From IMG/VR virus record IMGVR_UViG_3300045988_149348: a stretch of 42,988 nucleotides of DNA; one strand, given 5' to 3'. Shown piece by piece: positions 19,803 to 38,908 of this stretch. The notes under the pieces are model-generated. The model was not told the DNA's origin and did not search any database. It saw nothing but the letters and a program-made list of their open reading frames with translations. The position numbers were made by a program, and so were the translations under genes. The first letter of the stretch is position 1; the number at the start of each line of letters is the position of its first letter. Origin of the DNA: a virus (Duplodnaviria > Heunggongvirae > Uroviricota > Caudoviricetes).

Positions 19803-20359
19803 TTTTTAACCGCCATAACACAACAGGTTAAAGAAAACTGTTTAACTTATTGATACTAAAAGAGAAAAATGACGATCTTTTTACTCATAAAGAATCACAC
19901 AAACCAGCATAATCATCTGATTTTATTAAGTTTTTATAAGTAAAAAGGATCTTGCGATGGTTTTTTGGTTAAAAGATTGGATGTATTTGCATGATTTATA
20001 ACGATTTTTATCAGAACAACATCACATTGGTTAAAGATCTGCGCGTATCTTGATGATCTAAAAGAAAATTTTCTACTTTCTTTTTACCAGCACAAGCACA
20101 GCAAAAAATCACGTTTTCCCAATATTTTTCAATGAGATGAGTAAATTTCTTTTACCGCAACTTTTAACCTAACTTTTTTCACGTTTAGCTAGCCGAACAT
20201 CGGGGTTCGAATGACCCGCATCCAACGCTTTTGGCCAGAAGGACCCAATTCTGCCGGACGATGAAACGATGCTCGTGCACCCCCACAGACAGCCTGCGAG
20301 CGACGCTACAGAACACAGTGAATACACTCTGCATAACAACACCATCAACCACACGATGA

Positions 20360-21079
20360 TTAACGAGAGAAGGTCTTAGAAAGAATGTCATCAATAGCCT
20401 TTGTGACTTCATCAGCAAACGCATCCTCACCAGCACGCAGCGCCACGCCATGCCAATCAAGACGCTGCGAATAGTTAGGTTGCTGGATAAACGTAAGGAT
20501 CAACGTAGGACGCCGCCCAACGCGCTGCCAGACGCCTGGTTGAAGCGGGTTACTTGTACCAGGTCGAACAACAAAAAACTCCGTAGGCTTGCCCTGACGG
20601 CGATTTTGATGCGCATCTCGCTGAACTCTTAGGCCAGATAAGACCTGCTGTAATTGCCCCCGCGAAATATTCCCGTATTTGTCCAGCTTTGCGCCGGGAC
20701 CAGGAGCAAGCTGCCAGCCGTTAGGCAAATATCCACCAGCCCTTAGCGCCCCTTCTGAGCGTTTGTACTGTCGTTGGCCACCTTCGATTTGCGGAGTCAA
20801 CGTTACAGGGGCTGGCGTTCCTCCCCATTCACGAGCATACACAATGGCTGTAGGATCACTCTTCTTTGCGGCCAAAACGTAAGTAGAGTTCTGAATCCAC
20901 GGCGTGGGCCTGTCAAATACCCGATTAATTTCATTCTTAATCGCAGCCTGAGAAGCCTTTGCCGTTCTGGTTGCCGCAAGCGCCATTGCGAACGGCAATT
21001 CGCGTTCTTCAAGGCGCTGGAGTTGTCGTTGAATATCCTGAGAAGAAAAATCCATCTTTATCTCAATTCTGTCAGCCAC
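20360..21079 (-). CDS. hypothetical protein
   Basis: 239-aa ORF in the GC-rich block between the ParB-like genes; no recognised motif. Confidence 0.4.
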   Translation of the reverse strand: MADRIEIKMDFSSQDIQRQLQRLEERELPFAMALAATRTAKASQAAIKNEINRVFDRPTPWIQNSTYVLAAKKSDPTAIVYAREWGGTPAPVTLTPQIEGGQRQYKRSEGALRAGGYLPNGWQLAPGPGAKLDKYGNISRGQLQQVLSGLRVQRDAHQNRRQGKPTEFFVVRPGTSNPLQPGVWQRVGRRPTLILTFIQQPNYSQRLDWHGVALRAGEDAFADEVTKAIDDILSKTFSR

Positions 21080-21095
21080 CAGCGCCTCCTACACA

Positions 21096-22475
21096 CTACT
21101 TAATCAACGGCCGGAAAGCCGCCAGCACATCATCAGATCGTCCGATTGTTGAACCACCAGGCAACGGCAACTCAAACTCAAAACGAACAGCTTTCTCCAG
21201 ACTCGCCCAACTAAGGGAATCATCGTTAATGACGTGCAAATACCAGCTCTTACAGTTGAATATTGACCGCTTAATCCTGAAACCATGTACACGACACAAC
21301 TGCTTCACTTCCTCATCAGAGTGAAACTTCTGGTAAAACCAGTGCCCCTTCCGGTACAACGCGGTAAAACCGTTATGATCAATAAAATAAAGCCGGCTTT
21401 TGGAACTCGCCGCTTGTGTCTGCTTCAGGACTGTTTCCAGCTCTCCACGGCTACGGCCAGAAAAGAATATTGACCCACCAGCTTTACACAGCCCTTTCAG
21501 AACCGTCAGAACGGACCATTCAGCCTCGACACTATCGACCGAGTTCAAAACGCTATCGCAAATCACGTAGTCGTAACGCCCTCGCGTTTTTAAGTCGTCC
21601 ACCAGCGTATCAATCATCCGGTTTGTTGCGGTCCTATCCAGAGTGTTTCCAGCGCCCTTACGGCGGAAAAGCTCAAGATCATGCAGGTTATATCCCTTTG
21701 CCCTGAGCATTCGCGCGTAGTCTCCCTGACCCGAACCAAAATCAATTCCTCTTGGCGTCTTGGCAATGATCGGGAGGATCAACGACTCATACAGGTTTGA
21801 TTTCAGGCTGCCACCATTACGCAACCGCATAAGCTGCGCATACGTCTGGATGTATGTTGTTTTCTCCAGATGAGAATACTCAAATACACCATAAGTTTTA
21901 TTCAGATAACTTTGGTATTTTTCCTTCTCAACATCAGGGATCACAAACACCGTTAGCGGTGTGCGCGTCATCTTCGCTGCTAATGCATACTGAGCACAGT
22001 GAATAACCTCGCCAGACTGCGTAGCAACACAACCACCCCACGGACCATACTTGATAACCAGTTCCGCTATGTTCTTTCGAACATATGCCATTTTCGCGCG
22101 CATATTGCCTGAGATCTGGCTTGCCGATACCTGAACAAAACCATGCTTATCTTCCAGACCTGACACCCTGCAACGCTCATCTCCGCTGTCAAAATCCGTT
22201 CCGTTATGCAGTTGGTTAAACCGTACTTCGTCGTATACCGTCGTTTCACAGGGCAACACATACACCGCAGCACGCGTTATTCCCAACTTACGTAGCGCCT
22301 TCGTCCTTTGGTGTCCCGCCACCAGCAAATCGCCGCGCACTATCAATGGCTTCACAAGCCCCAGCTCCCTGACGCTTTCCGCCAGCCTCGCAAGATCATC
22401 CTCACCGATAAAACGCGGGTTATATTCCGCGCCGCGTAGGTGCGTTATGTCGTAATTGAGATGAAGCATCAGCAC
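21096..22475 (-). CDS. ParB N-domain / class I SAM-dependent methyltransferase fusion protein
   Basis: 459 aa; N-terminal ParB-like motif (PLIVRGDLLVAGHQR); C-terminal Rossmann methyltransferase motifs (GIDFGSGQGDY, LHDLE, YDYVICDSVL); no DPPY-type motif seen. Confidence 0.55.
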   Translation of the reverse strand: MLMLHLNYDITHLRGAEYNPRFIGEDDLARLAESVRELGLVKPLIVRGDLLVAGHQRTKALRKLGITRAAVYVLPCETTVYDEVRFNQLHNGTDFDSGDERCRVSGLEDKHGFVQVSASQISGNMRAKMAYVRKNIAELVIKYGPWGGCVATQSGEVIHCAQYALAAKMTRTPLTVFVIPDVEKEKYQSYLNKTYGVFEYSHLEKTTYIQTYAQLMRLRNGGSLKSNLYESLILPIIAKTPRGIDFGSGQGDYARMLRAKGYNLHDLELFRRKGAGNTLDRTATNRMIDTLVDDLKTRGRYDYVICDSVLNSVDSVEAEWSVLTVLKGLCKAGGSIFFSGRSRGELETVLKQTQAASSKSRLYFIDHNGFTALYRKGHWFYQKFHSDEEVKQLCRVHGFRIKRSIFNCKSWYLHVINDDSLSWASLEKAVRFEFELPLPGGSTIGRSDDVLAAFRPLIK

Positions 22476-23092
22476 ACCTCCCCAGCCAGCAATGCGGATA
22501 CAAATCCGATATAGCTGCCATTATCATCAACATAACGAGACACCGCGCAGTCAAAACGATCCGCTTCCTCATCCGTTGCCGGGATTTTATGACCTCCAAA
22601 TGACAGGTACTGAACTTTTACGCCTGATTTGGCCTCATCCTTCTCAAATGGGATATCCATACCCTCTGTGTCATCGTAGACCGCCGCACTCAATAAGTTA
22701 TCCAGTTCGCGCTGAGTAAAACCAATTGAGTCCAGAGCAAAATCATCGGCCGCAAGATCTGCAAGCTCCGCGCTTAACAACTCTTCATCCCAACCAGCAT
22801 TCAGCGGAATACGGTTGTCGGCCAGACGATATGCCTTCTTCTGATTCTCCGTTAGCCCTTCCAGAACAATGCAGGGAACGTCATCCATCCCCAACTGAGT
22901 GGCCGCAGCAATTCGACCATGACCAGCAATTACAACGTTGTTCTCGTCTATCAGGATCGGATTAGTCCATCCGTACTCCTGTATGCTGGCAACAATCTGA
23001 TCTACCTGCTCCACGGAGTGTGTGCGAGCGTTCTTTTCATAACCAATCAACACAGAAAGTGGTAAAGAAACCACATTAAGATGTTTTGTCAT
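22469..23092 (-). CDS. ParB/Srx N-terminal domain protein (paralog 2)
   Basis: 207 aa; NARTHSVEQVDQIVASIQEYGWTNPILID...IAGHGRIAAA; shares the C-terminal KIPATD motif with paralog 1. Confidence 0.6.
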   Translation of the reverse strand: MTKHLNVVSLPLSVLIGYEKNARTHSVEQVDQIVASIQEYGWTNPILIDENNVVIAGHGRIAAATQLGMDDVPCIVLEGLTENQKKAYRLADNRIPLNAGWDEELLSAELADLAADDFALDSIGFTQRELDNLLSAAVYDDTEGMDIPFEKDEAKSGVKVQYLSFGGHKIPATDEEADRFDCAVSRYVDDNGSYIGFVSALLAGEVC

Positions 23093-23214
23093 GCCGTTTA
23101 TCCGCTAAAATCCCCTCGCTTGTGCAAGCAAGTGGGCCTCGGTTTGTATCCACGGCACCCTGTGGGTATGAATGACTGTCGTCAGGTCGCAACTGACGGC
23201 GGGTGAGAGTGAAT

Positions 23215-23290
23215 TGGTGGCCCCTACCGGATTTGAACCGATGACCGTGCGATTATGAGTCGCCTGCTCTAACCACTGAGCTAAGGGGCC
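23215..23290 (-). tRNA. tRNA with CAU anticodon (Met or Ile2/lysidine type)
   Basis: 76-nt cloverleaf folded by hand: 7-bp acceptor stem, GCTC/GAGC D stem, anticodon loop CUCAUAA, T loop TTCAAAT, 3' CCA encoded. The 5' 42 nt match E. coli ileX-type tRNA as recalled. Confidence 0.8.
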
Positions 23291-23459
23291 ATATTTGATC
23301 TGTTTGTCTGGTGTGGCGCCGCGCACGAAAATCCCAGCCAATAAATTCAGGATTTTTGGGCGCGGCGGCATATCAGACAAACATGGTTGATGCGTGCGCC
23401 CATGAGAAAAGCGCATAGAATGTTGTAACTATATATTTATATAATTATAGAAATATATA

Positions 23460-23669
23460 TTACTTGGGGCAGTTGATTTCCCATGCCCTGTTATGAGCCA
23501 GAATATCTTTCTTTGTCTGGCGGTCCATAACATCGATATCGTGATCAGTCAGGTAGATGGGCTTTACCCAATCACAGGCGGTATCAACCACCACCGGGAC
23601 GCTTCCACGACTCCCGCAGCTCGCGATCAACATCGTCATCAGCCATATGGTTAACACTCTGCTGTACAT
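23460..23669 (-). CDS. o-spanin, Rz1-like lipoprotein
   Basis: 69 aa with lipobox LIASC; overlaps the 3' end of the Rz-like gene in another frame. Confidence 0.55.
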   Translation of the reverse strand: MYSRVLTIWLMTMLIASCGSRGSVPVVVDTACDWVKPIYLTDHDIDVMDRQTKKDILAHNRAWEINCPK

Positions 23670-23862
23670 TCCCCACCTCTTTTGTCACTTCTATACGCCG
23701 CTCCGCAGTGGCTTTTACGGCGGCTGCATTCTCATTAATGCGCTGCTTTTCAGCTTCATCTTCGGCCTTTTCTCGCCCCTTCATACGACCAAAACCAAAC
23801 GCACCGAATGCAACCAATATAACGGTGCCGATAAATGACAAAACGGCTTTCAAACCAGTCAT
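23584..23862 (-). CDS. i-spanin, Rz-like
   Basis: 92 aa; N-terminal transmembrane segment then charged coiled-coil; directly downstream of the endolysin. Confidence 0.55.
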   Translation of the reverse strand: MTGLKAVLSFIGTVILVAFGAFGFGRMKGREKAEDEAEKQRINENAAAVKATAERRIEVTKEVGNVQQSVNHMADDDVDRELRESWKRPGGG

Positions 23863-24401
23863 ACCACCACTCGCTCTTTCATCCAGCCGTAGACAAACGA
23901 CTCATTAGCCTCGCGCTTCTCCGCCAGCTCCAGATAGCGTTCGCCCTGCGTACAGTTCAGCGACGTCAGCATCACCCGTTCGCCGTCTTTTCCCCGATTC
24001 CCAAGATAAGCACGTAGCGCATTAATGGTACGTGGACCGATTCGTCCGTCTGCATCCAAATCGGGATACAGCTTCCCGCGCAGGTTGAACACATTCAGCC
24101 AGCGTTGAAGCATTTTTGACGCCACTGTTGGCCCCATGTTCACCCCCGTGTCACACAGCTCTGCGGCAATATCAGAGGATAATGCGGCCACCTGATCAAA
24201 GCGTGGTCCGTACCAGTAATCAGCCTCAAGGATTTCCAGTGCCTGTTCGCGGGTTAAATCGCGCATATCGCCACGGTATCCATGAGCACGGGCAGTGTTC
24301 TGAGTAATGCCCCACTTTGTTGGGCCTCCCTTGTCGTCAGGGTGATCCACATAGCCGCCCTCTTTTCCAAGAACGCTGTTAAAAATCTCATCTTTGGTCA
24401 T
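23859..24401 (-). CDS. endolysin, GH108-type muramidase with peptidoglycan-binding domain
   Basis: 180 aa; N-terminal EGGYVDHPDDKGGPTKWGIT motif as recalled for glycoside hydrolase family 108 lysins. Confidence 0.7.
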   Translation of the reverse strand: MTKDEIFNSVLGKEGGYVDHPDDKGGPTKWGITQNTARAHGYRGDMRDLTREQALEILEADYWYGPRFDQVAALSSDIAAELCDTGVNMGPTVASKMLQRWLNVFNLRGKLYPDLDADGRIGPRTINALRAYLGNRGKDGERVMLTSLNCTQGERYLELAEKREANESFVYGWMKERVVV

Positions 24402-24684
24402 GATTAAACCCTAATGCGTCAACTATCCGCGCCAGATTGCCCCTGAAATACAGAACAACGATGCAGATAATCAGATTTCCAATAACCACCAGCCAGTGGG
24501 ATTCTTGATAAAGACCGAACACATAACGGAAGGGAACATTGGCGTATACAATGACGTAGATATAAGCCAGAAAGGAAACAAATGGACGATGCCTGGAGTC
24601 TTTCCGTCGATAAAGCATCAGCGCCATTACTATTACTGTGCAAAGCACCGCATTAATCAGTGCTGACGGGTCACTGCTTACCAT
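24388..24684 (-). CDS. membrane protein, holin/antiholin-like
   Basis: Multi-pass hydrophobic ~98-aa ORF (from internal Met) between the holin-like gene and endolysin. Confidence 0.4.
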   Translation of the reverse strand: MVSSDPSALINAVLCTVIVMALMLYRRKDSRHRPFVSFLAYIYVIVYANVPFRYVFGLYQESHWLVVIGNLIICIVVLYFRGNLARIVDALGFNHDQR

Positions 24685-25066
24685 TTGAACCCCCTCCACG
24701 TAAGCGGGAAAGCATTCCAAAGATGCTACCGAGATCCTGGCTGTTTACGAACGTGAGGATTTTAATTGTCAATGCAGCCACAATAACCGCACCAAGTGCA
24801 TCAAGAGGACGATCGTTGTAGCTGGTCCATTTGGCAAGAAATGAGCCAACTAACGGCGCTCCAATCACTCCAACAATGAACGATGTAAAGAAATAGCCAA
24901 TCAGCTTGAGACGGCTAATATTCACCGCTGTAGCAACATAGAAAACAGCGCCAGCAAATGCCCCGAATACAACGCCGTAATCAATACCAGTTGCAATACC
25001 AAAAACGCTGGCACCCATCAGGCCACCAGCAGCAACGGCCGTACCGGAAATTGGTTCTGCTGACAT
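24671..25066 (-). CDS. holin-like membrane protein
   Basis: 131 aa, Gly/Ala-rich transmembrane segments, first gene of the lysis cassette; GAGGA Shine-Dalgarno 5 nt upstream. Confidence 0.5.
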   Translation of the reverse strand: MSAEPISGTAVAAGGLMGASVFGIATGIDYGVVFGAFAGAVFYVATAVNISRLKLIGYFFTSFIVGVIGAPLVGSFLAKWTSYNDRPLDALGAVIVAALTIKILTFVNSQDLGSIFGMLSRLRGGGSNGKQ

Positions 25067-25080
25067 TGAAATCCTCGTTA

Positions 25081-25110
25081 AAAAAAAAGCCCCGCCGAAA
25101 AAGGCAGGGC
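25081..25110 (-). terminator. rho-independent terminator immediately upstream of the holin gene
   Basis: Minus strand: GCCCTGCC-TTTTTC-GGCGGGGC hairpin followed by eight U residues; ends 15 nt before the holin start codon. Confidence 0.7.
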
Positions 25111-25452
25111 TTCATAAAGCAACAAATTACGCGGTAATCGCTTAACGCAGTTTTACTACGTTAAATGAAACACTACACCCAGTTACCACCTAAAACAAGG
25201 TTTCCCCATAAAAAAACCTTCATATCGTGGTTAATCGATCAATAAAAAAGCAATGTTCAACTTTTTACCAACCGAACATCCCGACCAGGACTTCCATAAT
25301 ATTCGCCGATATGCCACTGCTTAAGTTGAGTAATCTTCTCCAACTTAACTCCCATAGAGTCCAGTTTCTGCCATGTTTTCGGTTGTATGTGCTTCATTAC
25401 CCGCTCTGAATATCTGAATACTGCTCGTAAGCGCATGGCTTCTCACTACAGC

Positions 25453-25878
25453 TTATATATGTTCACGACTGGACTTCCAGAATATCCACGCCAGATCAAC
25501 ATTCTGGTCTTGGTAATTCATCCCTTCGTTGGCACGAAGCAATAATGTTTCATGGTTTTTATCACCCGCATGAAACCTGACAAGTGCTTCGAACTTTTCG
25601 CGCCCATCATCCGGCACTACCGCCGTTGGCGGCGCGGAGAATAGAGGTTTAGGTGATATTTCCGCACGTTTTGCGTATGCTTCAACTGTGTCAGGGTTAA
25701 ACAGGATTATGTTTTCACCGCATTCCCACGCTACCGGCTCTGCTTCCAGCGATGCCAGCGCGATACGAAACACATTGGCAAGCAGGCTGCTTGAAGATTG
25801 GTTATCGTGCGCCGGGTCGCTCAGGAAACCAGTGATGAATGATTTAATTTCCGCGTTTTCTCTGGTAATAGTGGTCAT
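25453..25878 (-). CDS. hypothetical protein
   Basis: 141-aa ORF, last gene of the accessory block. Confidence 0.4.
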   Translation of the reverse strand: MTTITRENAEIKSFITGFLSDPAHDNQSSSSLLANVFRIALASLEAEPVAWECGENIILFNPDTVEAYAKRAEISPKPLFSAPPTAVVPDDGREKFEALVRFHAGDKNHETLLLRANEGMNYQDQNVDLAWIFWKSSREHI

Positions 25879-26390
25879 GCCGCGTATCCTTCTTTCTTAT
25901 TAACAATTACACCGTCATATATTTCATTAAGGTGCCCTCTCAACTCCATGCGCCTTAATGCAGATAACATGTAATCGCATTCAACCTGCTTATTCCCAGT
26001 AAATGGCTTATCGTCAGGATTACCCCAACAGCAATTACCCTTGGGCCACCCATGTACTTTCCGTACTCTTCCGTTAACAACGTGAAGCAATCCCCAGCCA
26101 GGCGGTAAATCCTCAACTGAAATAATTCCCGGCTCACTAATAAAGAATCGCCAGTCGCCCATTCCAAGAGACGGATTTTTACGGAAACGCTTTTTTCTAT
26201 CTGCCAACAAGTCAGCACGAGAACACTTCGCCTCTATCAAGCATGATGCTGAATTTCTGAATCCCATAGCATCTGGCTGTTCTCCGGTACTGGTTACAGC
26301 TATAAAGCGGTCATGAAAGCAAACCTTGAACCCGTTGCGCTTAAGGAACTTGTACGCAATCTGACAGAGTTCGCGGTGTGTTAACGCCAT
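25875..26390 (-). CDS. putative PD-(D/E)xK-fold nuclease-like protein
   Basis: 171 aa from ATG 26390 (AAGGAG upstream); D...CLIEAKC arrangement resembles a D-ExK catalytic motif; assignment tentative. Confidence 0.4.
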   Translation of the reverse strand: MALTHRELCQIAYKFLKRNGFKVCFHDRFIAVTSTGEQPDAMGFRNSASCLIEAKCSRADLLADRKKRFRKNPSLGMGDWRFFISEPGIISVEDLPPGWGLLHVVNGRVRKVHGWPKGNCCWGNPDDKPFTGNKQVECDYMLSALRRMELRGHLNEIYDGVIVNKKEGYAA

Positions 26391-26575
26391 CTCACTCTCC
26401 TTTAGTGCGCAGATAACAGTGGTTTTTCCAGCGGTTTTGCGCCGCGCTACGCTTATCTTTGACTCCCTCTCTGGCAATTCCAGAATATAAGTACAACACC
26501 ACACGGCGATTGCTAACTCTCAACCACTGGCTGGGATAGCAACGTCTGTATACACGGGAAATAAGCATCTTTGCT

Positions 26576-26863
26576 TTACGGTTTTTCATCGTTTGCCCCC
26601 TGCTTTTCTGCCCTTAACACCATGCGAGAACCATCATCCAGCTCCCAATTGATTTCACCGCCTTCTGCCATGACAAGATGCCAAACGAGTTGTGCGGCCT
26701 CGTTGGTTACATCACGACCGCGATCATTGCCTACACGGCGTTTTGTTCCGTCACCTAAATCGCGCATTTTGGCCAACACGATGGTTTTTGATAGCGGTGA
26801 AAAACCAAGCTGTAGCCGTGCGGAATTACTCACTGGTTGCCCCCTGAATACGTTTAAACTCAA
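26576..26863 (-). CDS. hypothetical small protein
   Basis: ORF track only; start uncertain. Confidence 0.3.
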   Translation of the reverse strand: MSLNVFRGQPVSNSARLQLGFSPLSKTIVLAKMRDLGDGTKRRVGNDRGRDVTNEAAQLVWHLVMAEGGEINWELDDGSRMVLRAEKQGANDEKP

Positions 26864-27518
26864 TTACCCATACCCACGGGTTAGATAGCCAGTTCTCTTG
26901 CCCGTAAATACCGCGCCAGATATCACCAAAGCCAACGCGATAAACAGCTTCCGGCGGTGTAATCTTGTACGTCGCCGGAGATGCGCCTTCCGCTTTAGCA
27001 TCTGCCTCGCTCATGTCATGCAGCCGTTCCACACGCACGTCGGTAATTTCCAGCAAAATACGCGAAGCCCAGCGCGGCATGTGAATTGATGGACGCCACC
27101 CGCCATCAAACTTTTCATTCACAGTGTGAGGTTTCCAGTCGACATCATCGGGTATCGACCATAAGCCGTAATCACCCTGCTTTTGCTCACAACTGGCCCG
27201 ATAAATCCTTGCTGCGTTCTTCTCATCGCCACGACAAAGGCTGTCGTTCCAGTCCACACTGCAACCATCCTCATTGCCTAATATCGCCCACGCTTCACGG
27301 ACCCATATGCGATCACCAACGTTACCGAACGGGCATAAACCATGTTCCGGTGCATCCATAACGTGGGTATAGACACCATTGCGTTTCTTTGTCGGTTTAC
27401 GGATAACCAGGCAGTTATCGGCCCTGACATTTTTTACAGGTCGGCGAGTCTGCGTCTTCCTGCCTTCGAGGATGGCCCTGACCATCGCATCATTAAAAAT
27501 CATGCCGCGCTCTTTCAT
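26826..27518 (-). CDS. ASCH-domain-like protein
   Basis: N-terminal MIFNDAMVRAILEGRKTQTRR matches the GxKTxExR-type ASCH signature as recalled; start set at an internal Met (27518) to avoid overlap with the upstream gene. Confidence 0.45.
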   Translation of the reverse strand: MKERGMIFNDAMVRAILEGRKTQTRRPVKNVRADNCLVIRKPTKKRNGVYTHVMDAPEHGLCPFGNVGDRIWVREAWAILGNEDGCSVDWNDSLCRGDEKNAARIYRASCEQKQGDYGLWSIPDDVDWKPHTVNEKFDGGWRPSIHMPRWASRILLEITDVRVERLHDMSEADAKAEGASPATYKITPPEAVYRVGFGDIWRGIYGQENWLSNPWVWVIEFKRIQGATSE

Positions 27519-27523
27519 CTTGC

Positions 27524-27889
27524 TCACTTCAACTCCTCCCGACGACGTTCCTGAAGCTCTAGCATTGCGGCTCGGAAATCCTGCCACCATTCCTCATCGG
27601 CTACTGGGGTGTTCCGCTCCAGCACCTTGTCCGCATCGGCGATCAGGTTTGCCAGACTCTTGTCTGAAATCTTCGTTACCGGAGTCGTTGGTTGCTCAAC
27701 CTGCCCGATAGGTTTTATCGTGCTCAAAAGGAGGCGACGGCGGGAAAGAGGTGCCCCACAACGACGGCCATCTTCCTTGCGATATGTTTCTTTCGGACCA
27801 ACACACCAGGTTGTCGGCGTCTCGCGCAACTTCACTTTTTTCTCACCATCATTGGTAATGATTATTCCGGTATGGGTTTTGATGCTCAT
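27524..27889 (-). CDS. hypothetical protein
   Basis: 121-aa ORF, coupled with neighbours. Confidence 0.4.
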   Translation of the reverse strand: MSIKTHTGIIITNDGEKKVKLRETPTTWCVGPKETYRKEDGRRCGAPLSRRRLLLSTIKPIGQVEQPTTPVTKISDKSLANLIADADKVLERNTPVADEEWWQDFRAAMLELQERRREELK

Positions 27890-28167
27890 GCCACAGCCCC
27901 TCTCAACGGCTTAACTTTGGCTAATAAGGTGTTAAACAACATGGAGTTAGGATTCATGCCAAATGGCAATTCCGGTTTAGCGGAGTAGTACAGGCAACCA
28001 TTTATTTTCCTGGTTGTTATCTGTCCTTCGGCAACCATGCTTCTCAGTCTGCAACGCATAGAGTTCTGCGACACACCAATGTGCTCCGCGATTACGTCCA
28101 CTTTTGAACATGGGTGATCGGTCAGGAAATTAATCACATCTTGGGGGTTAATAATTTTGCGTTTCAT
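27886..28167 (-). CDS. small winged-helix DNA-binding protein (putative regulator)
   Basis: 93 aa from ATG 28167; helix-turn-helix-like segment VDVIAEHIGVSQNSMRCRLRSMV; AT-rich motif copy directly upstream. Confidence 0.45.
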   Translation of the reverse strand: MKRKIINPQDVINFLTDHPCSKVDVIAEHIGVSQNSMRCRLRSMVAEGQITTRKINGCLYYSAKPELPFGMNPNSMLFNTLLAKVKPLRGAVA

Positions 28168-28244
28168 TGTCGAGGCGTCCTTATACATTTATATAAATAT
28201 ATAATTCTATATACGGCGGGAGACATCCCGCCGTAGGCTTACTG

Positions 28245-29312
28245 TCAGGCTTTCAATAGCGATTCTTTCAGATATCGGGCATCAGCCAGGGCGTTTGGAG
28301 TAATCTTGCGAACCCATGCATTACGGGTTGGACTCCACTTAAAGGCGCGTGATTTAAGCAGCGAACGAATGTTTGCCTCTGGTTTGCCAGGGAAATAAAA
28401 CAGGATGCGGTTATCCTCTGGATCTATCTCCATAGAAAAGCCGTCGTATTCTTCGCGCTGTGCTCCTGTTACAGACTTGACCGATTCAAGCTCCTTAATA
28501 CGGCTCTGTAGTCGTTTGATTTCGGCGTTATTGTTGCTCAGTGCGTATGAAGGGAATCCGATGCGCCCACAGAAATCTCCGGCCAGTAACTCTTTGGCTT
28601 CGCTTTCTGTAAACCTGAGATCGATTAATGCAGAAAGCTGCTGTAATTGGTCTTTTTTGTATTTGCGAATGGCCTTATTTGCGGCCTTCATTTTGACGTG
28701 TGACTTCATGCAGCCTTGCAGCTTACGAAGCAACTTAAATAGCGCATCAGGATCATCAGACGAAATTCCATTACGACCAACACCTGCGGCTTTGCTCTCG
28801 TAGTGTGATGCTTTACTTTCGCATTCAACAAAGGCTTTTCTGAATAACGCATCAGCTTTAGACAAACGGCGGCGATGGCCTTTCGCGCTATAATGGTCAA
28901 CTAAAATCGGCTGGCCTAACGGGATCACATCCAACAGGTCATGCGCTCGCTTATGCGCTACCGCACCTTCTTTTCTGGCTTTTTCTGCACGAGCAACATA
29001 TCGGGCAAGACGCGCGTTCTGGCGTTCCTGATAGGTGTTTACGTAATCATCTCCGCGCTGCTGCTGTTCAAGCCATGCTTTGCGCAGATCTTCTGTTACG
29101 TCCACCAGCTCCGCAGGGATACAACCAGTTTGGGCTTCATAAGAGTAACCATCCTCATAGATACGCCCATCGTCTTCAACAAAGAAAAAGGTTTCGTGCT
29201 CATCGCTTTTGACCATACGACCATTAACATGGCGTAATAGGTAGCCAGTATCAGTGCTTAACAGGCTGTTAGGGTTGTTGATCCAGTCAGAAATAATTAC
29301 TTGTTTATTCAT
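28245..29312 (-). CDS. hypothetical protein (possibly DUF3560-like)
   Basis: 355-aa ORF, first gene after the Q-like gene; GGAG ribosome-binding site; preceded by copy A of the shared ~100-bp leader. Family assignment from memory only. Confidence 0.5.
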   Translation of the reverse strand: MNKQVIISDWINNPNSLLSTDTGYLLRHVNGRMVKSDEHETFFFVEDDGRIYEDGYSYEAQTGCIPAELVDVTEDLRKAWLEQQQRGDDYVNTYQERQNARLARYVARAEKARKEGAVAHKRAHDLLDVIPLGQPILVDHYSAKGHRRRLSKADALFRKAFVECESKASHYESKAAGVGRNGISSDDPDALFKLLRKLQGCMKSHVKMKAANKAIRKYKKDQLQQLSALIDLRFTESEAKELLAGDFCGRIGFPSYALSNNNAEIKRLQSRIKELESVKSVTGAQREEYDGFSMEIDPEDNRILFYFPGKPEANIRSLLKSRAFKWSPTRNAWVRKITPNALADARYLKESLLKA

Positions 29313-29318
29313 CAGATT

Positions 29319-29420
29319 TCTCCGGTTTAACCAGGGCGGGTATCGCTCGGTTTCGGGTATAACCTTAGGAAATTTTTTCCCACCTGTAAAGCACTTTTTA
29401 TATAAATCTATAATTATATA
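29319..29420 (-). promoter_or_regulatory. duplicated ~100-bp promoter/leader module, copy A (candidate Q-dependent late promoter region)
   Basis: Near-identical to 38909..39021 (3 differences seen by eye); sits between the Q-like stop codon and the next start codon; contains TTTACA-17-TAAGGT and an AT-rich 20-mer. Confidence 0.55.
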
Positions 29421-29481
29421 TTTATAGATTTTCGATGTTCCCGATGTCTACACACCATCAAAACAGCTCAAAATGACACTT

Positions 29482-29859
29482 TCACTCTCTTCTCTTTTTC
29501 AAATAGTCGACAACATACGCCCTGGCTTTTGCCAGCTTCCGGCGATACTGTCTGAGACTAAGAGAAAGGGCGTGGGCTTTATCAATATGCGGTGCATTTA
29601 TGTCGAGGCCCCGAATCTCCCACGCCCCGTATTCAATTCGGACAACCAGCGCCGCAGTCTCATCAACTACCGTGAGGGCCGTCACCGCTCCCTCGATACT
29701 GGTTTCCAGTGAGTCATTTGGTGCGCCGCCCCCTCCGGTAAACTGGCAACGCGTAACCATCATCATTTCTAACATCGACGCGAAACCGCTACGGGCGTTG
29801 CAGCCATTGCGCACCCACAGCGCCCATAGCTCAAACAAGCTATCCAGATCGCGTCTCAC
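29482..29859 (-). CDS. antitermination protein Q-like
   Basis: 125 aa; LFELWALWVRNG and EYGAW motifs resemble the 82/21-type Phage_antitermQ family as recalled; promoter-like repeat directly downstream. Confidence 0.55.
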   Translation of the reverse strand: MRRDLDSLFELWALWVRNGCNARSGFASMLEMMMVTRCQFTGGGGAPNDSLETSIEGAVTALTVVDETAALVVRIEYGAWEIRGLDINAPHIDKAHALSLSLRQYRRKLAKARAYVVDYLKKRRE

Positions 29860-29862
29860 TGT

Positions 29863-30195
29863 TCAGATCTCCCGTATCGTGACGGGATAAAGCGCCTCTA
29901 CCTGCTTTTTCTTCATGATGTAGACGTCTGTTCGCACACCTTTAGTGTCGACACAATCAATCGTCCCATCGTCATAAAACACCATGAAATCAAGTTTATA
30001 AACGACACCACCTGGCAGATTAAAAGGCACCTGCATAAGAAACGTCACAACGCGGCCAGCTTTTCTCAGTAGCTTCAGTTCGCAGTAGTAATCAGCCTCT
30101 TTTTTGCTATCAAAAGCGATATCATCGACAACCGTTTTTTTATTGCCGTATTTGCTTTTCCTGGTCGCTGGTTTGCGAAAGCCGGTATATCTCAT
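29863..30195 (-). CDS. DUF1064-like protein (nin-region type)
   Basis: 110 aa; YGNKKT...FDSKKEADYY...YKLDFMVFY pattern as recalled for DUF1064. Confidence 0.5.
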   Translation of the reverse strand: MRYTGFRKPATRKSKYGNKKTVVDDIAFDSKKEADYYCELKLLRKAGRVVTFLMQVPFNLPGGVVYKLDFMVFYDDGTIDCVDTKGVRTDVYIMKKKQVEALYPVTIREI

Positions 30196-30596
30196 TTGGT
30201 ATCCCCTGGTACTTCACCAAGACTAAGATCAAACCCAATTTCGTCTTTAACTGACTGCGGCAACAGCTCCCACGTCTGCGCACACAAAAATTCATCGGTG
30301 CCATAACGCTCAACAAAGCGAGCACAATTACTCAGGGGAGGGTGACGAACGGCAATATGCGGAGGCACGCGCCCACCACCAGGCACAACACCGCGATGAT
30401 GTGGTGCGCACAACCCAAAGCTATGGAAGTGGCAATTCTCATCAACGCTGCCGTAATCAGGATCGTGATGTAGTTCCGTCCACAGCTCTGGATTCTCAAT
30501 TTCACGGCCATCAATAATGCAAGCTATGCAACCCACGTGAGTGAGCACCGCTTGTATATAAAGTTTCTCTTTCTTCGTTGGTGTACGTCCGTTCAT
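30192..30596 (-). CDS. putative zinc-binding HNH-type nuclease (Ref/NinG-like recombination protein)
   Basis: 134 aa; Cys/His cluster GCIACIIDG...LHHD...CHFHSFGLCAPHH. Confidence 0.4.
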   Translation of the reverse strand: MNGRTPTKKEKLYIQAVLTHVGCIACIIDGREIENPELWTELHHDPDYGSVDENCHFHSFGLCAPHHRGVVPGGGRVPPHIAVRHPPLSNCARFVERYGTDEFLCAQTWELLPQSVKDEIGFDLSLGEVPGDTK

Positions 30597-30829
30597 CAGC
30601 GCCCCTTACCATTGATAAAGAGGTTGAACTCGTTGATTAACTGGACATACATGCTTCTGGCCGCGTAGTTCTTTGCCAGCTCTTTACGGGATGAGATCCC
30701 GCAAAACTCACGCAGAATCACAGAGGCCTCAGAACTGTTTGAAACGTTCTTCCCTGTTTTACTGGTCAGAAAGCGCCAGAATTGGGGATTCTGGCAATGC
30801 ATCGCAGCACCGCGAACATAACTACTCAT
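30596..30829 (-). CDS. hypothetical protein (nin-region)
   Basis: 77-aa ORF, coupled start/stop with neighbours. Confidence 0.4.
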   Translation of the reverse strand: MSSYVRGAAMHCQNPQFWRFLTSKTGKNVSNSSEASVILREFCGISSRKELAKNYAARSMYVQLINEFNLFINGKGR

Positions 30830-31341
30830 TGATGGCCCCCGTCATTTCTGGTGCTTTTCACCGTGCGGCTTCTTAAAAACCTGCCATCACGAACAACAGA
30901 CACTTCTCGTTTACCCAACCTCATTTCACGGCGGTAACATTCAGAAAATGCCTCGTCCGGCATCATATAAATGCGACGCTTCGCCTCCGTATCCAGAAGG
31001 GAACGGCTTGGGGTTACATATAAAAACGACTCATCAATAGGGACAAAACCACGAGCAAGAATTGCTGGCAGAATGCCAGGAAGAACGCAGAAAACAGCTC
31101 CACGATGCAGCAACATCTGGTACTCCATGACCTCCGTTATCCCCGTGACTACTGTTACGGTGTCACGTCTGTTACGGCTGGCAACCAGTCGCTGCACACG
31201 TCCAATTTTCTGATCTACAGATAGATGTTTGCTATCGTTATCAATATGATCGATAACAAATCCTTTAATCGTTTGATCAAGGTAGTGCACCACCTTCGAT
31301 TGAATCTGGTGATTATCACCAAAGAAGGCCAGAATCATCAT
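30826..31341 (-). CDS. hypothetical protein
   Basis: 171-aa ORF in the early operon. Confidence 0.4.
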   Translation of the reverse strand: MMILAFFGDNHQIQSKVVHYLDQTIKGFVIDHIDNDSKHLSVDQKIGRVQRLVASRNRRDTVTVVTGITEVMEYQMLLHRGAVFCVLPGILPAILARGFVPIDESFLYVTPSRSLLDTEAKRRIYMMPDEAFSECYRREMRLGKREVSVVRDGRFLRSRTVKSTRNDGGHQ

Positions 31342-31832
31342 TCCTCAAGCCTCCCGAGTGCTGAACGCCGGGCGTTGCTAATCTCCTTATGAATCAGCTC
31401 GATATCGCTGGAATCTTTATTCTTAAACTCCAGCATGGCAATCGCATCACGAACCTCTGAAACGGTTACGTGTGAGTGTTTCCAGCGAGCAATGAATCGC
31501 GGACCGCGTAGATTGCAACGCTCCGCAGGCATCCCCAGCTCAGAGAAAACCGCTTTCAGCCTTGATAAGCAGTTAACAGGGAGATTCCCTTTGATCTTGT
31601 TCTGCCGAACCGATGTGCCATCGCTACGCTGGCGCTGACGTTCGGCAAAATCTGCCGCCCATTGCTGGACGTTAATCCGGCCTTCCGAATACGCCACCAG
31701 CAGCGTCAGGTTATCCGCACGAGGGAATCTCTCGAAGCGATACCAGGCACCAATCAGTGATGACGTAAAGCCAAACTTTCTGGCAACACCAATTTGGCCT
31801 CCATTTTCGTCAACCCACTCCTGAAAGGTCAT
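31338..31832 (-). CDS. Cro/YdaS-like DNA-binding protein with C-terminal extension
   Basis: 164 aa; N-terminal helix-turn-helix QIGVARKFGFTSSLIGAW; first gene leftward of the divergent operator region; GGAG ribosome-binding site. Confidence 0.55.
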   Translation of the reverse strand: MTFQEWVDENGGQIGVARKFGFTSSLIGAWYRFERFPRADNLTLLVAYSEGRINVQQWAADFAERQRQRSDGTSVRQNKIKGNLPVNCLSRLKAVFSELGMPAERCNLRGPRFIARWKHSHVTVSEVRDAIAMLEFKNKDSSDIELIHKEISNARRSALGRLEE

Positions 31833-31850
31833 TTAACGAACTCCAGTTAA

Positions 31851-31865
31851 ACCACGATATGTGGT
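31851..31865. promoter_or_regulatory. operator, ACCAC-N5-GTGGT family (ACCACGATATGTGGT), Cro-side
   Basis: Perfect 15-bp inverted repeat in the cro leader; imperfect neighbour ACCACATATCGTGAG at 31872..31886 falls in the spacer of a TTGAAA-17-TTTAAT promoter on the minus strand. Confidence 0.6.
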
Positions 31866-31953
31866 ATTAAAACCACATATCGTGAGTTTTTCAATGGGCG
31901 AAACAAAAAATAACCTTCTATTTGTGGTCCACCTCTCGTCTTACCATGTGAAA

Positions 31954-31968
31954 ACCACTAAATGTGGT
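31954..31968. promoter_or_regulatory. operator, ACCAC-N5-GTGGT family (ACCACTAAATGTGGT), repressor-side
   Basis: Perfect inverted repeat just upstream of a TATAAA -10-like hexamer (31973..31978) and the CI-like gene start. Confidence 0.6.
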
Positions 31969-32005
31969 AATGTATAAATAACCCACCATTCACGATTGAT
32001 GAGAC

Positions 32006-32662
32006 ATGAAAAGCAACGACGAGAACATCAAGAAAGAAATAGGTCTGCGCATTCAGACTCTACGGAAACAATCCGGCATGACTGCCGGAGATCTCCAGCA
32101 AGTCACTGGAATAGGCTTAAGCACCTTGCAGAACTATGAGGCCGGATTAAGACAACCATCTATACCTGCCATCAAGAAAATCGCGCACGCCCTGAAAGCA
32201 TCAGCGCCTTATATCGCGTGCTTAACAGATAACCCGTTCCCACCCCAGAATACTAACGCTCCTGTTATTCCTGGGCTTGTAGCTATAAAAAATGACATAG
32301 CATCGCACGCCGGAGAAAAGCCAGTGCTGGCGATAGAACAGGAGATTCTACGAAGCAAGAACATCAACCCATCGTCTCTGTCAGTTCTCCAGAGCAACGA
32401 TGAGTTAATGTCACCAACAATATCCCCTGGCTCCCAAGTCCTGATTAATACAGACGATACAGAGATTCATGAGGGGATCTATGCCCTTGAAGACAGAAAT
32501 GGCCTGGTTGTTTTGAGGCACTGTAGAGTCATACCGGGTGACAATGCTGTTATGCTGTCAACCGAAAGGGATGCTGAAATGAACACTAAGCATCTGAATA
32601 ACGAGGAATTTAAGCGTTATAAAGTTCTTGGCCGCGTAGTTAGTGTTGTCAACTGGTTATGA
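32006..32662 (+). CDS. CI-like repressor (HTH_XRE N-domain + LexA/S24-like C-domain)
   Basis: 218 aa; N-terminal helix-turn-helix (LQQVTGIGLSTLQNYEAG); C-terminal ELMSPTISPGSQVLIN aligns by eye with the S24 GDSMxPxIxxGDxVLVD motif. Confidence 0.7.
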   Translation: MKSNDENIKKEIGLRIQTLRKQSGMTAGDLQQVTGIGLSTLQNYEAGLRQPSIPAIKKIAHALKASAPYIACLTDNPFPPQNTNAPVIPGLVAIKNDIASHAGEKPVLAIEQEILRSKNINPSSLSVLQSNDELMSPTISPGSQVLINTDDTEIHEGIYALEDRNGLVVLRHCRVIPGDNAVMLSTERDAEMNTKHLNNEEFKRYKVLGRVVSVVNWL

Positions 32663-32704: not shown

Positions 32705-32719
32705 ACCACATTTTGTGGT
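32705..32719. promoter_or_regulatory. operator, ACCAC-N5-GTGGT family (ACCACATTTTGTGGT)
   Basis: Perfect inverted repeat between the CI-like gene and 32755..33129, followed by TTGACA. Confidence 0.55.
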
Positions 32720-32754
32720 TTTGACAACATGTAAAAGTATAAAAGAGGCTACGC

Positions 32755-33129: not shown

Positions 33130-33264
33130 CTGCAAGCGGGCTAACGCCCGCTTATATGATTATAGATTTATATAATTATATAAAACGCTTTCCATCCGCC
33201 AAAAAGTTGGTTATGCTTACCTCGTTCTATAAATATAGATTTATAGAATTATATAACCAAACAC

Positions 33265-33933
33265 ATGGAGTCTCGACAAATGACTATCTCTGTAGGTATT
33301 TTCAACGGAAAAGGCGGCGTAACCAAATCAACAATTGCCCGTGCTTTAGCAGTTGCTTATGCAAAGGCTGGCTGGAATGTATGCCTGATCGATATGGATG
33401 TGCTTAACGGAACGGTAACGCGTTGGGTACAACGCAGAATGGCCAACAATATCGAACCAGCAATCGCGGCGCAGCCGTGCGGCACACCATCACAAGTCCA
33501 GAAAATCATCGAATCAGAAGTATACGACCTGGTTATCGTTGATGGCGGTGCCTACGCATCTGAATCAGTACCGAAGCTATCTGAATTTCTGGATATGGTT
33601 ATTTTGCCAACCCGATTCTCTACCGATGACCTGGAAACCACCGTTAACACTGCTCACGGCATCGTTAAAAAGGGTGTGCCAATCAAGAAAATTTGCATGG
33701 TGTTTTCCGGCGCGGCTGAAAATGAAGCTGACTATATTGAAGCCCAAGAGTACCTGGCTAATACGCCATACTTTGTTGTCGATAAGTACATTCCCCACAA
33801 GCCAGCTCTGAGCAAAGCTCAGGATAAGGGCTTAAGCCTCATTGAATGCTCATACGTTGCGCCACGCAAAAAGGCAGACGACGTTATTCAGGGGATTATC
33901 AACCAGCTTGAGGCTCTGACTACTGCCGCGTAA
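33265..33933 (+). CDS. ParA-family partition ATPase (small, type Ib-like)
   Basis: 222 aa; deviant Walker A GKGGVTKST near the N-terminus; followed by a small ribbon-helix-helix-like gene; AT-rich repeats upstream. Confidence 0.7.
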   Translation: MESRQMTISVGIFNGKGGVTKSTIARALAVAYAKAGWNVCLIDMDVLNGTVTRWVQRRMANNIEPAIAAQPCGTPSQVQKIIESEVYDLVIVDGGAYASESVPKLSEFLDMVILPTRFSTDDLETTVNTAHGIVKKGVPIKKICMVFSGAAENEADYIEAQEYLANTPYFVVDKYIPHKPALSKAQDKGLSLIECSYVAPRKKADDVIQGIINQLEALTTAA

Positions 33934-33976
33934 TATATAATTATAGTTTTATAGATTTATATAAGAGGGGATACAC

Positions 33977-34225
33977 ATGGCCGCACCATCAAAACCACCA
34001 AAGAAGAACAGCAAAGGCGTACCGCCATCGATCGAACAACCGCAGGTTTTCGACCCGACTGAAACGCCAACCAGAACCAAATCAGGTGGGGCACAAATGG
34101 CGTTTAACGTCGACCCTGAATTTAAACGCGAGTACAAAACGTTCGCCAGCTCAATGGATATGTCATTGAAAGAAGTGCTGACAAAATCTTTTGAGTTACT
34201 CAAGGCTCAATACAACCAGAAGTAA
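33977..34225 (+). CDS. ParG-like ribbon-helix-helix partition/centromere-binding protein
   Basis: 82 aa; basic Pro-rich N-terminal tail and C-terminal RHH-like segment (MAFNVDPEFKREYKTFA...); immediately downstream of the ParA-like gene. Confidence 0.5.
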   Translation: MAAPSKPPKKNSKGVPPSIEQPQVFDPTETPTRTKSGGAQMAFNVDPEFKREYKTFASSMDMSLKEVLTKSFELLKAQYNQK

Positions 34226-34446: not shown

Positions 34447-34469
34447 TAAAAAAGGCCCCCGAAGGGGCC
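34447..34469 (-). terminator. rho-independent terminator (minus-strand orientation)
   Basis: GGCCCC-CGAA-GGGGCC hairpin with an A-run on the plus side, giving a U-run on the minus strand after the small peptide ORF. Confidence 0.55.
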
Positions 34470-34475
34470 TAATCG

Positions 34476-34598
34476 CTACTTGCTGCTAATGTTTATCGTC
34501 ACATTCAGAGCGTTATCAGTAATCTTCCAACCCTCCCCATGTGGCGTAAACAAAGCTCCAGTAACAACGATAAAAATACACATGTAGTATTTTTTCAT
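34476..34598 (-). CDS. small hydrophobic peptide (40 aa), candidate membrane peptide
   Basis: MKKYYMCIFIVVTGALF...; AAGGG 8 nt upstream of ATG 34598; own terminator downstream. Low confidence. Confidence 0.3.
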   Translation of the reverse strand: MKKYYMCIFIVVTGALFTPHGEGWKITDNALNVTINISSK

Positions 34599-34976
34599 TG
34601 TGTGGCCCTTACAGGCCGTTTCACGGCATCCCCACCGACGAAAATGACGCGAGAGCAAGCACGCTGTTTGTGCCTGCGTGGTACGGCAAGTGGATAATCC
34701 TTTCCTGAAAGTCGGTGCCCGGTTGCGAATCGGCGAAAAGGCCCCGCGTAATGTTACACCGCAGCCCCTTCATAATGAAGGGATAAAAATGTATTGTTTT
34801 TCATTAGGTTAAATACACACCACAAAAATCACTCGCTTTTGTGCTCTAATAAACCAAATTTATTTGGACAATTTTATTCAGTTGGGTAAGAATATGGTTG
34901 CTGTTTGTGCTTGCGTGGTTGTATTTATACAACAACGTAATGCTGAAAGGACCGCGAATCCGATCAGCACGAAAGA

Positions 34977-35737: not shown

Positions 35738-35839
35738 TAAATGCGCCATTGGTGGACACTTTCCGAGCCGTAGCAAAATCTACGGTCGGGATTGGAACCC
35801 CGTAGACACAATGGCGCATACCGCGTTAGCGGTTTTTTT
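35738..35839 (+). ncRNA. candidate c4-like antisense regulatory RNA with intrinsic terminator
   Basis: Structured ~100-nt region: GCGCCATTG...CAATGGCGC long-range stem, CCGTAG/CTACGG inner stem, then ACCGC-GTTA-GCGGT plus UUUUUUU terminator (35820..35839). 35789..35817 is complementary in two blocks (CATTGTGTC, GTTCCAA) to 35917..35941 in the downstream leader. Confidence 0.5.
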
Positions 35840-36005
35840 ATGCGTAAAGCACTGCTACACCCAAATTATGGTGGGGCGTGCGGGGGAGTCGTAAGACTCG
35901 CCGGTTCGTCATTGTGTCCGGTAGTTCCAACCCTGCACGTCTCACCACCCAATGATTGGAACCTGACGGTGGTGAGTATCCTTAACCTTTAAGGGAATCA
36001 TCACA

Positions 36006-38901: not shown

Positions 38902-38908
38902 CGGGTTA

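Follow-up and report, generated by a model that had tools for sequence, protein, structure and literature searches.

A candidate plasmid-style establishment or accessory region between the Q-like gene and the lysis cassette of an Escherichia coli phage-plasmid

When a phage carries accessory genes in the stretch from an antiterminator-like gene to its lysis genes, the question arises whether they are cargo of late transcription or a region under control of its own. Such a case is found in the IMG/VR record IMGVR_UViG_3300045988_149348, a caudoviricete sequence of 42,988 nucleotides (nt), the whole of which is referred to here as the window. On the minus strand of the window, a block of genes at 25453-29312 is situated downstream of a Q-like gene of 125 amino acids (aa; 29482..29859) and upstream of the first holin gene (24671..25066; Pfam Phage_holin_8, 1.7e-37), with which the lysis cassette starts. 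In lambda and the Shiga toxin (Stx) phages, pR' directly follows Q, and the cargo (e.g. stx) is located downstream of tR' and is driven by Q. The initial annotation had placed the block in this setting, namely as seven genes inserted into the classic Q-to-lysis cargo site of lambdoid phages. We favour another reading, to which we assign a probability of about 0.5: the block would be a plasmid-style establishment or accessory region rather than Q-driven, stx-type cargo, and AT-rich repeat arrays within and around it would serve as partition-linked operators.

The element that carries the block is a ~48-kb myovirus-type E. coli phage-plasmid and not a lambdoid prophage. Among the complete E. coli genomes searched, the best matches to positions 23000-32000 of the window are all circular plasmids of 47-52 kb, one of them being NZ_AP022818.1, in which P2-like tail genes and a lambda-like terminase occur together with RepA, ParA, a tail-fibre invertase and a RelE-type toxin pair. 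Collinearity with the window is also seen in three Yersinia myophage isolates, and the window itself codes for an IncFII RepA (1e-43), ParA, a Gp49/HTH toxin-antitoxin pair and a resolvase-type invertase, while a domain scan of the window proteins found no integrase of the kind that an integrated lambdoid prophage would have. The presence of an IncFII RepA, ParA and a toxin-antitoxin pair without an integrase, together with the circular plasmids among the relatives, thus identifies a phage-plasmid. A phage-plasmid typing paper contains no E. coli type of matching size and morphology, and a literature search on the names of the collinear Yersinia phages found nothing.

The list of open reading frames (ORFs) shows minus-strand ORFs tightly packed over the entire interval. 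All of them have PHROG family matches, at E-values between 1e-27 and 1e-233, indicating that they are real genes and not chance ORFs. The initial annotation was therefore right about a run of real genes, but their number is eight rather than seven, since a 65-aa gene (26392..26589; phrog_1380) had been overlooked, concealed under an over-extended ORF of 209 aa. In the direction of transcription the block starts with the gene for a 355-aa DUF3560 protein (28245..29312; PF12083), followed by those for a winged-helix-like protein of 93 aa (27886..28167; phrog_1687), a 121-aa protein with two modules, here called g121 (27524..27889; phrog_7520), an ASCH-like protein of 230 aa (26826..27518; phrog_874) and a DUF7446 protein of 85 aa (26576..26833; PF24233). 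The 65-aa gene comes next, and the block ends with the genes for a 171-aa protein of PD-(D/E)xK nuclease fold (25875..26390) and for a 141-aa mosaic protein of the Ea22/DUF551-neighbourhood type (25453..25878; phrog_660, phrog_924 and phrog_5117). Start codons were set by comparison with the RefSeq annotation of relatives, with the most likely starts at 28167 for the winged-helix-like protein (100 aa from position 28188 in the ORF list), 27518 for the ASCH-like protein, 26833 for the DUF7446 protein and 26390 for the nuclease. With these starts, neighbouring genes are contiguous or have overlaps of 4-14 nt all the way from the winged-helix gene down to the 141-aa gene, which is the pattern of an operon. 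The GC content of the block (45-52%) is similar to that of the neighbouring DNA, and Rfam gave no RNA family inside the block.

Comparison with relatives suggests that the block is not one inserted cassette but a composite of three parts, namely a DUF3560 unit, a winged-helix operon and distal, swap-prone cargo. In a tblastn comparison with 13 close relatives, comprising E. coli plasmids, IMG/VR contigs and one Yersinia phage, the DUF3560 protein, the winged-helix protein and g121 are 98-100% identical, like the products of the flanking core genes. The ASCH-like gene is present in all 13, where it forms two allele groups (72-78% versus 96-98% identity) that differ by a replaced central segment and thus have a mosaic structure, and the DUF7446 gene is found in most, not all, of them. 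The winged-helix, g121, ASCH-like and DUF7446 genes form a tightly packed operon that is conserved in the E. coli lineage. The nuclease and the 141-aa gene are replaced in relatives by Ea22-like, DUF551 or other genes, the latter being otherwise matched at only 51-60%. The 65-aa and nuclease genes are 94-97% identical at the nucleotide level to DNA of the early-left (ea/b) region of lambda-like and Stx phages, where in Stx phages the nuclease segment lies beside DUF551 and antirepressor genes, and to the Ea22/DUF551 region of P1-like plasmids. Fusions to Ea22 or DUF551 modules occur among the homologues, but the genes occupy another genome position and belong to another operon in the window. 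The 65-aa, nuclease and 141-aa genes form a mosaic, swap-prone end of the block, traded with ea-type regions in Stx and lambdoid prophages and in P1-like plasmids. The variation ends sharply at ~25450, and the following 380 bp up to the holin gene are common to all relatives, whatever gene precedes them. A small conserved gene of 59 aa (25257..25436, minus strand; phrog_9594, 9e-46) lies just beyond this recombination junction.

More distant relatives of the same element type retain the order XRE repressor, cro-like, Ref-like, DUF1064 and Q-like gene. Where protein identity is 59-70%, the flanks are retained and the interval is occupied by other genes, namely DndB, a DNA methylase and many small ORFs. 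A plasmid relative from Enterobacter (L024) retains DUF3560, followed by DndB and other genes; its DndB-family gene (PF14072, at 9145-10203 of L024) is located in the socket that holds the winged-helix operon in the window. Two lineages with 59-63% identity of the Q-like protein lack DUF3560; their interval of 8-9 kb holds a DNA methylase and small genes that are unrelated. In a relative at even greater distance, the Q-like gene is separated from the terminase by nine small genes. Because distant relatives fill it in such different ways, the Q-to-lysis interval is the hypervariable region of the family, and its proximal part has become fixed in the lineage of the window. A single recent insertion of the block is ruled out by the uniform base composition and by the proximal genes, which are conserved like core genes, so that the notion of an inserted block fits the distal part but not the whole. 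Likewise, the classic lambdoid cargo site proposed initially holds up as a hypervariable accessory interval, whereas the element is not a lambdoid prophage and the Q-driven anatomy of stx fits poorly here.

The candidate promoter regions of the block share a sequence feature with the partition locus. The window contains only seven stretches of at least 90% AT, all of them intergenic arrays in which an 8-bp repeat of a TTATA type recurs four or five times (10 motif matches versus 0 expected, with 8-bp periodicity). Two of the arrays belong to the block, one upstream of the DUF3560 promoter (29392..29433) and one heading the winged-helix operon (28180..28214), and three flank parA, with two upstream (33151-33186 and 33225-33257) and one between parA and a downstream 82-aa gene (33930-33966). 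The other two lie after the lysis (spanin) genes (23419-23466) and upstream of a backbone gene of 126 aa (38982-39018). Three arrays directly follow GC-rich hairpins, such as the hairpin ACGGCGGGA-tgtc-TCCCGCCGT (28213..28234, minus strand) just 3' of the DUF3560 stop codon, which is kept in the Enterobacter relative and has no T-run, hence it was not called by a terminator scan. A sigma-70-like promoter, TTTACA-17-TAAGGT (29362..29390, minus strand), can be read from the sequence between the first array and the DUF3560 gene, with a 5' untranslated region (5'UTR) extending to 29313. The DUF3560 gene therefore resembles a self-contained monocistronic unit, consisting of the array, the putative promoter, a fixed 5'UTR, the gene and the GC hairpin.

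This arrangement is not restricted to DUF3560. Array, TTTACA-17-TA[AT]GGT and fixed leader form a cassette of ~130 nt (29300-29433) that precedes unrelated genes two or three times per plasmid and is ~90% identical to a copy at 38902-39018, within a repeated stretch at 38894-39018 before the 126-aa gene, as well as to two copies in the Enterobacter relative, which a promoter scan flagged as TTTACA-17-TATGGT. The cassette was found in 62 plasmids with about three copies each, all of them non-mobilizable and almost all of 44-49 kb. In one relative (L004) copies are located at 26936, 34191 and 43078; there, a third copy heads a second accessory region that is absent from the window. The copies are more alike within a genome than to their orthologous counterparts, indicating concerted evolution. 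A second cassette, composed of hairpin, array and leader, heads the winged-helix gene in the window and DndB in the Enterobacter relative. Moreover, each of three diverged lineages (L018, L019 and L024) has an array motif of its own, which is common to parA and the interval after the Q-like gene.

The protein that might recognise the arrays is encoded just after ParA (82 aa; 33977-34225, plus strand) and has a Pro/Lys-rich basic tail and a conserved C-terminal core. The small ParA-adjacent proteins of the lineages are homologous and differ in the predicted beta-strand; the homologue from L019 contains an AT-hook-like motif, GRGRPRK. The 82-aa protein could be ParG- or omega-like, and short tandem repeats are present both at the parA promoter and at other promoters, as is typical of such systems. 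Analogues are omega of pSM19035, ParG of TP228, KorB with its sites on RK2 and, in the phage-plasmid N15, dispersed centromere sites; the window has in common with them arrays of short tandem repeats that lie at the promoter of parA and at further promoters across the replicon. As for omega and ParG, the window encodes a small protein with a disordered basic tail beside a small ParA. It differs from these systems in the 8-bp TTATA-type unit, in a ribbon-helix-helix (RHH) fold and DNA binding that are putative, and in the targets, among which are accessory genes of a phage and one site that separates the lysis genes from the tRNA/packaging genes.

The location of DUF3560 homologues on plasmids points to the establishment of incoming DNA. 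The assignment to DUF3560, for which the initial annotation had suggested a profile search, is confirmed by Pfam PF12083 well above the gathering threshold (E 2.6e-31; 108.7 bits versus a cut-off of 27.2 bits; residues 94-216). In the protein, a long helical DUF3560 core is preceded by a beta domain at the N-terminus and followed by an alpha/beta domain at the C-terminus. Most of the 727 homologues have ~265 aa, equivalent to residues 90-355, and some are fused to ArdC-N (PF08401) or polyvalent-protein domains; 232 of the 434 plasmids with a homologue are conjugative. A full-length homologue with 54% identity belongs to an F-like leading region, where it adjoins an SLT gene and comes after ArdA, SSB, a ParB-like protein, PsiB and PsiA. 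On an IncW plasmid the DUF3560 gene lies between ardC and ssb/ardK, and on pIPO2T it is near ssb. The DUF3560 gene of pO157 has been counted among the leading-region genes (PMC11125564). In R388, the promoters of ardC, orf7, ssb, orf12 and orf14 are repressed by ArdK and the partition protein StbA, and overshoot after transfer (PMC3937220). From gene position in the IncW relative only, we infer that the DUF3560 gene may be the equivalent of the R388 orf7 unit. In common with the establishment regulon of R388 and F-like plasmids, the block has a DUF3560 gene and several putative promoters with what would be a shared operator. Unlike the plasmids, the window represents a phage genome, with injection of double-stranded DNA instead of transfer of single-stranded DNA, it lacks ssb, psiB, ardA and ardC, and its repressor is only a candidate.

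On the favoured reading, the arrays would act as operators for the small ParA-adjacent protein, which would resemble the RHH proteins of the ParG/omega type. Upon entry of the DNA into a naive cell, the genes of the block would be de-repressed in a burst, and in the plasmid state they would be held low, a pattern that would match the establishment genes under ArdK/StbA control, where DUF3560 homologues occur beside ssb, ardC, ardA and psiB. The products, among them the DUF3560 protein with its DNA-binding-like C-terminal domain, the nuclease and the ASCH-like protein, would be DNA-handling accessory proteins that probably aid the establishment of the incoming replicon. The Q21-like protein would most likely act further downstream, at a conserved non-coding element and a terminator before the holin gene. 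If it does so, the block would lie outside the Q-dependent late transcript.

The relationship of the 125-aa protein to Q becomes visible only by remote homology. The protein itself has no Pfam match, and its only NCBIfam match is a weak one to the PA0613 family. A profile from close homologues was too shallow to reach phage 21 Q (Q21), and a wider search was needed: among 1.8 billion representative proteins, a profile search gave 129 relatives, of which 106 were used for a new profile. This profile matches Q21 (PDB 6JNX/6P18) with an E-value of 2.2e-5 over profile positions 4-91. Pfam Phage_antitermQ (PF06530) is matched by nine of the 106 relatives, at up to 1e-4, and several match models of sigma-70 region 4. 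With 125 versus 162 aa, the protein is shorter than Q21, and the homology is remote. We accept the gene as Q21-family-like by remote homology on these profile matches, so that the initial label has remote support at the level of the family, but none from a direct Pfam match of the protein itself.

As expected for a Q-type system, the late genes lie behind an intrinsic terminator that needs read-through (25113-25086). This strong terminator (25086..25113, minus strand; an 11-bp stem with 7 GC pairs and a T9 run) ends ~20 nt before the ATG of the holin gene, and transcripts of the holin gene must therefore read through it. A terminator of other sequence is found at the same position in L018 and L024. 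Upstream of it is a non-coding element of ~115 nt (25135..25250, minus strand) that is present in all relatives, whichever gene precedes it. Between the window and the Enterobacter relative, this element is better conserved than the adjoining coding DNA; the product of the 59-aa gene is 50% identical to its Enterobacter homologue despite the DNA divergence. The leader before the holin gene was not found outside this element family. It is most plausibly a candidate late promoter and antiterminator loading site, which would place the late control region downstream of the block, and a weak candidate promoter, TTGTTT-17-TAGTGT, can be read in it by eye. A hairpin between the two conserved blocks of the leader was dropped as a candidate, as it is not maintained in the Enterobacter relative. 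Neither a Q-binding element nor a sigma-dependent pause site could be recognised; the promoter directly 3' of the Q-like gene is the multi-copy cassette that is found elsewhere too, and the candidate late element is 4.2 kb off.

Three other readings have to be considered, each of which fits the anatomy less well than the favoured one. If the block were a moron site of the lambda/Stx type, its genes would lie behind a Q-dependent late promoter and serve late-expressed toxin, exclusion or anti-defence functions. The lambdoid and Stx Q-to-S interval indeed resembles the locus in having variable accessory DNA between the antiterminator gene and the lysis cassette and lysis genes that require read-through of a terminator. 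The interval is hypervariable across the family, the upstream gene is related to Q21, and the distal genes also travel in the accessory regions of Stx phages. Furthermore, in L019 a promoter-like site is followed ~50 nt later by a strong terminator (9294-9390) ~750 bp downstream of the Q-like gene, an arrangement resembling pR'-tR', and several more terminators follow through the accessory region. In the lineage of the window, however, the strong terminator and the most conserved non-coding element come after the block and not before it, so that terminator and leader are ~4.2 kb from the Q-like gene, and the block has promoter cassettes of its own in an element that is a plasmid-prophage without integrase. 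The DUF3560 promoter is a multi-copy cassette, another copy of which serves an operon of the plasmid backbone, a place at which read-through by late transcripts would be meaningless. The first three genes of the block are conserved like core genes and two more are found in most relatives, and the homologues in Stx phages sit in the early-left ea region rather than in the Q-S interval. A search of seven block proteins with PADLOC (PADLOC-DB v2) gave no usable match either: six of the seven had none, and the remaining one had a match of E 0.006 to SoFic over a helix-turn-helix stretch. We therefore regard Q-driven cargo as unlikely. The absence of a recognised core lytic role among the products, which had been pointed out initially, holds.

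The second reading is a nin-like module for DNA metabolism or lytic replication, in which the task of DUF3560, the nuclease and the ASCH-like protein would be recombination or replication in the lytic phase. Lytic replication genes are not recognisable in this phage-plasmid. The neighbours are a Ref-type nuclease and a DUF1064 resolvase-like protein, one product has the confirmed PD-(D/E)xK fold, the DUF3560 protein matches in its C-terminal half a PHROG with the label 'primase' (2e-37), and DUF3560 is conserved wherever it is retained in the enterobacterial clade. Nevertheless, primase, helicase or initiator domains were not detectable in the block proteins with Pfam and NCBIfam, DUF3560 and the nuclease are missing altogether from more distant relatives of this element type, free exchange affects both the nuclease and the 141-aa gene, and the plasmid homologues of DUF3560 reside in leading or establishment regions instead of replication modules. 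Such a module seems marginally less likely than late cargo. The third reading, which we consider the most improbable, is a defence or superinfection-exclusion island, whose genes would be expressed by the resident plasmid and would protect the host from other phages. Candidate promoters of its own might allow the block to be expressed while the element is a plasmid, the products include a nuclease-fold protein and a small, putatively DNA-binding protein, the winged-helix protein weakly matches the Ren-like exclusion proteins (phrog_142, E 0.002), and the Enterobacter relative carries DndB in the same socket. By contrast, the block shows no ATPase, sensor or effector architecture typical of defence systems, PADLOC found no defence-system protein in it beyond the SoFic match already mentioned, and both the leading-region location of DUF3560 and its fusions to ArdC-N point to the incoming-DNA side of the conflict.

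The establishment reading has its own weak points. To our knowledge, no function of DUF3560 has been demonstrated in any system. The 82-aa ParA-adjacent protein has no significant Pfam match, and the sole hint of an RHH fold is a weak HicB/RHH match of one homologue (E 0.009). The promoters, operators and terminators of the block are candidates read from the sequence, and a sigma-70 scan gave no canonical minus-strand promoter in either gap, including the pre-holin element. Instead of operators, the arrays could be generic UP elements or sites for H-NS or IHF, or they could be centromere sites without a regulatory role. Finally, early transcripts may simply read through the whole block.

With these points in mind, the block can be viewed as a probable variant of known accessory and establishment regions, in which the unusual element would be the wiring to partition-type operator arrays. 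A bolder version, which we put forward only tentatively and with more doubt than conviction, is that the partition protein is a global repressor acting via the dispersed arrays and that the three concerted cassettes are 'expression sockets' for swapped establishment and accessory genes, among them DUF3560, which would have been acquired from the leading regions of conjugative plasmids. Upon infection, these genes would be expressed in an unrepressed burst and then be shut off, and the result would be an establishment regulon of the conjugative-plasmid kind inside a phage, situated between its antiterminator and lysis genes. Phage-plasmids are common in clinical E. coli and carry genes between the phage and plasmid gene pools. 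Should the reading be true, a phage would have adopted the establishment logic of conjugative plasmids, with a leading-region gene, several promoters controlled by one partition-linked repressor and a burst upon entry, and this would provide a handle on the role of DUF3560, a gene on hundreds of conjugative plasmids, as well as on how accessory genes are plugged into fixed regulatory sockets. If it is not true, the block would be a variable region of the ordinary kind, made up of phage genes that are uncharacterised.

The remaining proteins of the block are assigned with differing strength. In the nuclease-fold protein, E37, P39-D40 and E53-A-K55 are invariant in 32 homologues and match the motif E...PD...(D/E)xK, and the protein has the alpha/beta fold of restriction endonuclease-like proteins. 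The initial call of a PD-(D/E)xK protein is thereby borne out, with nuclease activity being predicted only. The family has no significant sequence match in Pfam or the PDB and weakly matches phrog_5429; a link to the MmcB family, of which 3DNX is presumably a representative, is conceivable. The ASCH-like protein belongs to phrog_874 (3e-91), and its match to the ASCH family of Pfam (PF04266) stays below threshold (15 bits versus a cut-off of 21.2 bits; E 0.03-0.04, or 0.0057 for the best allele). An allele profile searched against the PDB matched ASC-1 at E 0.26 only, with Pfam ASCH remaining sub-threshold. Proteins with 97% identity are titled 'ASCH domain-containing protein' in RefSeq, so that the earlier ASCH call agrees with the naming of close homologues but not with the Pfam cut-off. 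The case of the winged-helix protein is similar, as its match to phrog_1687 (labelled MarR-like/'MarR family'; 5e-32) is in line with the earlier assignment, while the Pfam matches to HTH_24, FaeA and TrmB are all sub-threshold (E ~0.01). g121 matches phrog_7520 (6e-84), its N-terminal part also phrog_1226 and its C-terminal part phrog_14672, and has no Pfam match. The DUF7446 protein matches PF24233 with 5e-17 (using the 95-aa ORF of the ORF list). The 65-aa gene matches phrog_1380 over its full length (1.9e-31) and is annotated at the same place in relatives. Single-sequence PDB searches with four proteins gave nothing significant.

Several observations concern the surroundings of the block. 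Rfam detected isrK and a P1-type C4 antisense RNA at 35767-35952 (plus strand), directly 5' of an ORF6N/Rha antirepressor gene (36194-37375, plus strand), which together correspond to an ImmI immunity module of the P1/P7 type, in addition to the XRE repressor (32006-32662). ACCAC-N-GTGGT palindromes at 31853-31884, 31947-31968 and 32705-32726, in or near the divergent region of the XRE repressor and cro-like genes, are probably the operators of the main repressor and distinct from the AT-rich arrays. The ryfA small RNA family is matched over its full length (137 bits) at 34448-34746 (minus strand), in the stretch that separates the partition genes from the immunity region. On the other side of the lysis cassette, a tRNA gene with the anticodon CAU (23215-23290, minus strand) was called tRNA Met by ARAGORN and is annotated as tRNA-Ile in the RefSeq entries of relatives; it is presumably of the lysidine-modified tRNA-Ile type. 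A 34-nt inverted repeat (23301-23383) lies just upstream of it. Between the tRNA gene and a ParB-like gene, relatives have a second variable region of ~3-4 kb (24833-27889 in L004) with an MT-A70 methyltransferase, DUF2513 and small ORFs, which the window lacks (23093-23214). The window itself seems to be a complete contig, since one of its proteins is on record, in identical form, for a JGI contig of 42,988 bp. The RefSeq annotation of L004 shows three proteins with a ParB/Srx N-terminal domain upstream of the terminase genes (20952-24832, corresponding to 19212-23092 of the window, minus strand). The sole window counterpart compared, the ParB-like gene at 22469-23092, has no Pfam match at E up to 1e-5 and is 99-100% identical in relatives; ParB-like nucleases are also typical of the leading regions of plasmids.

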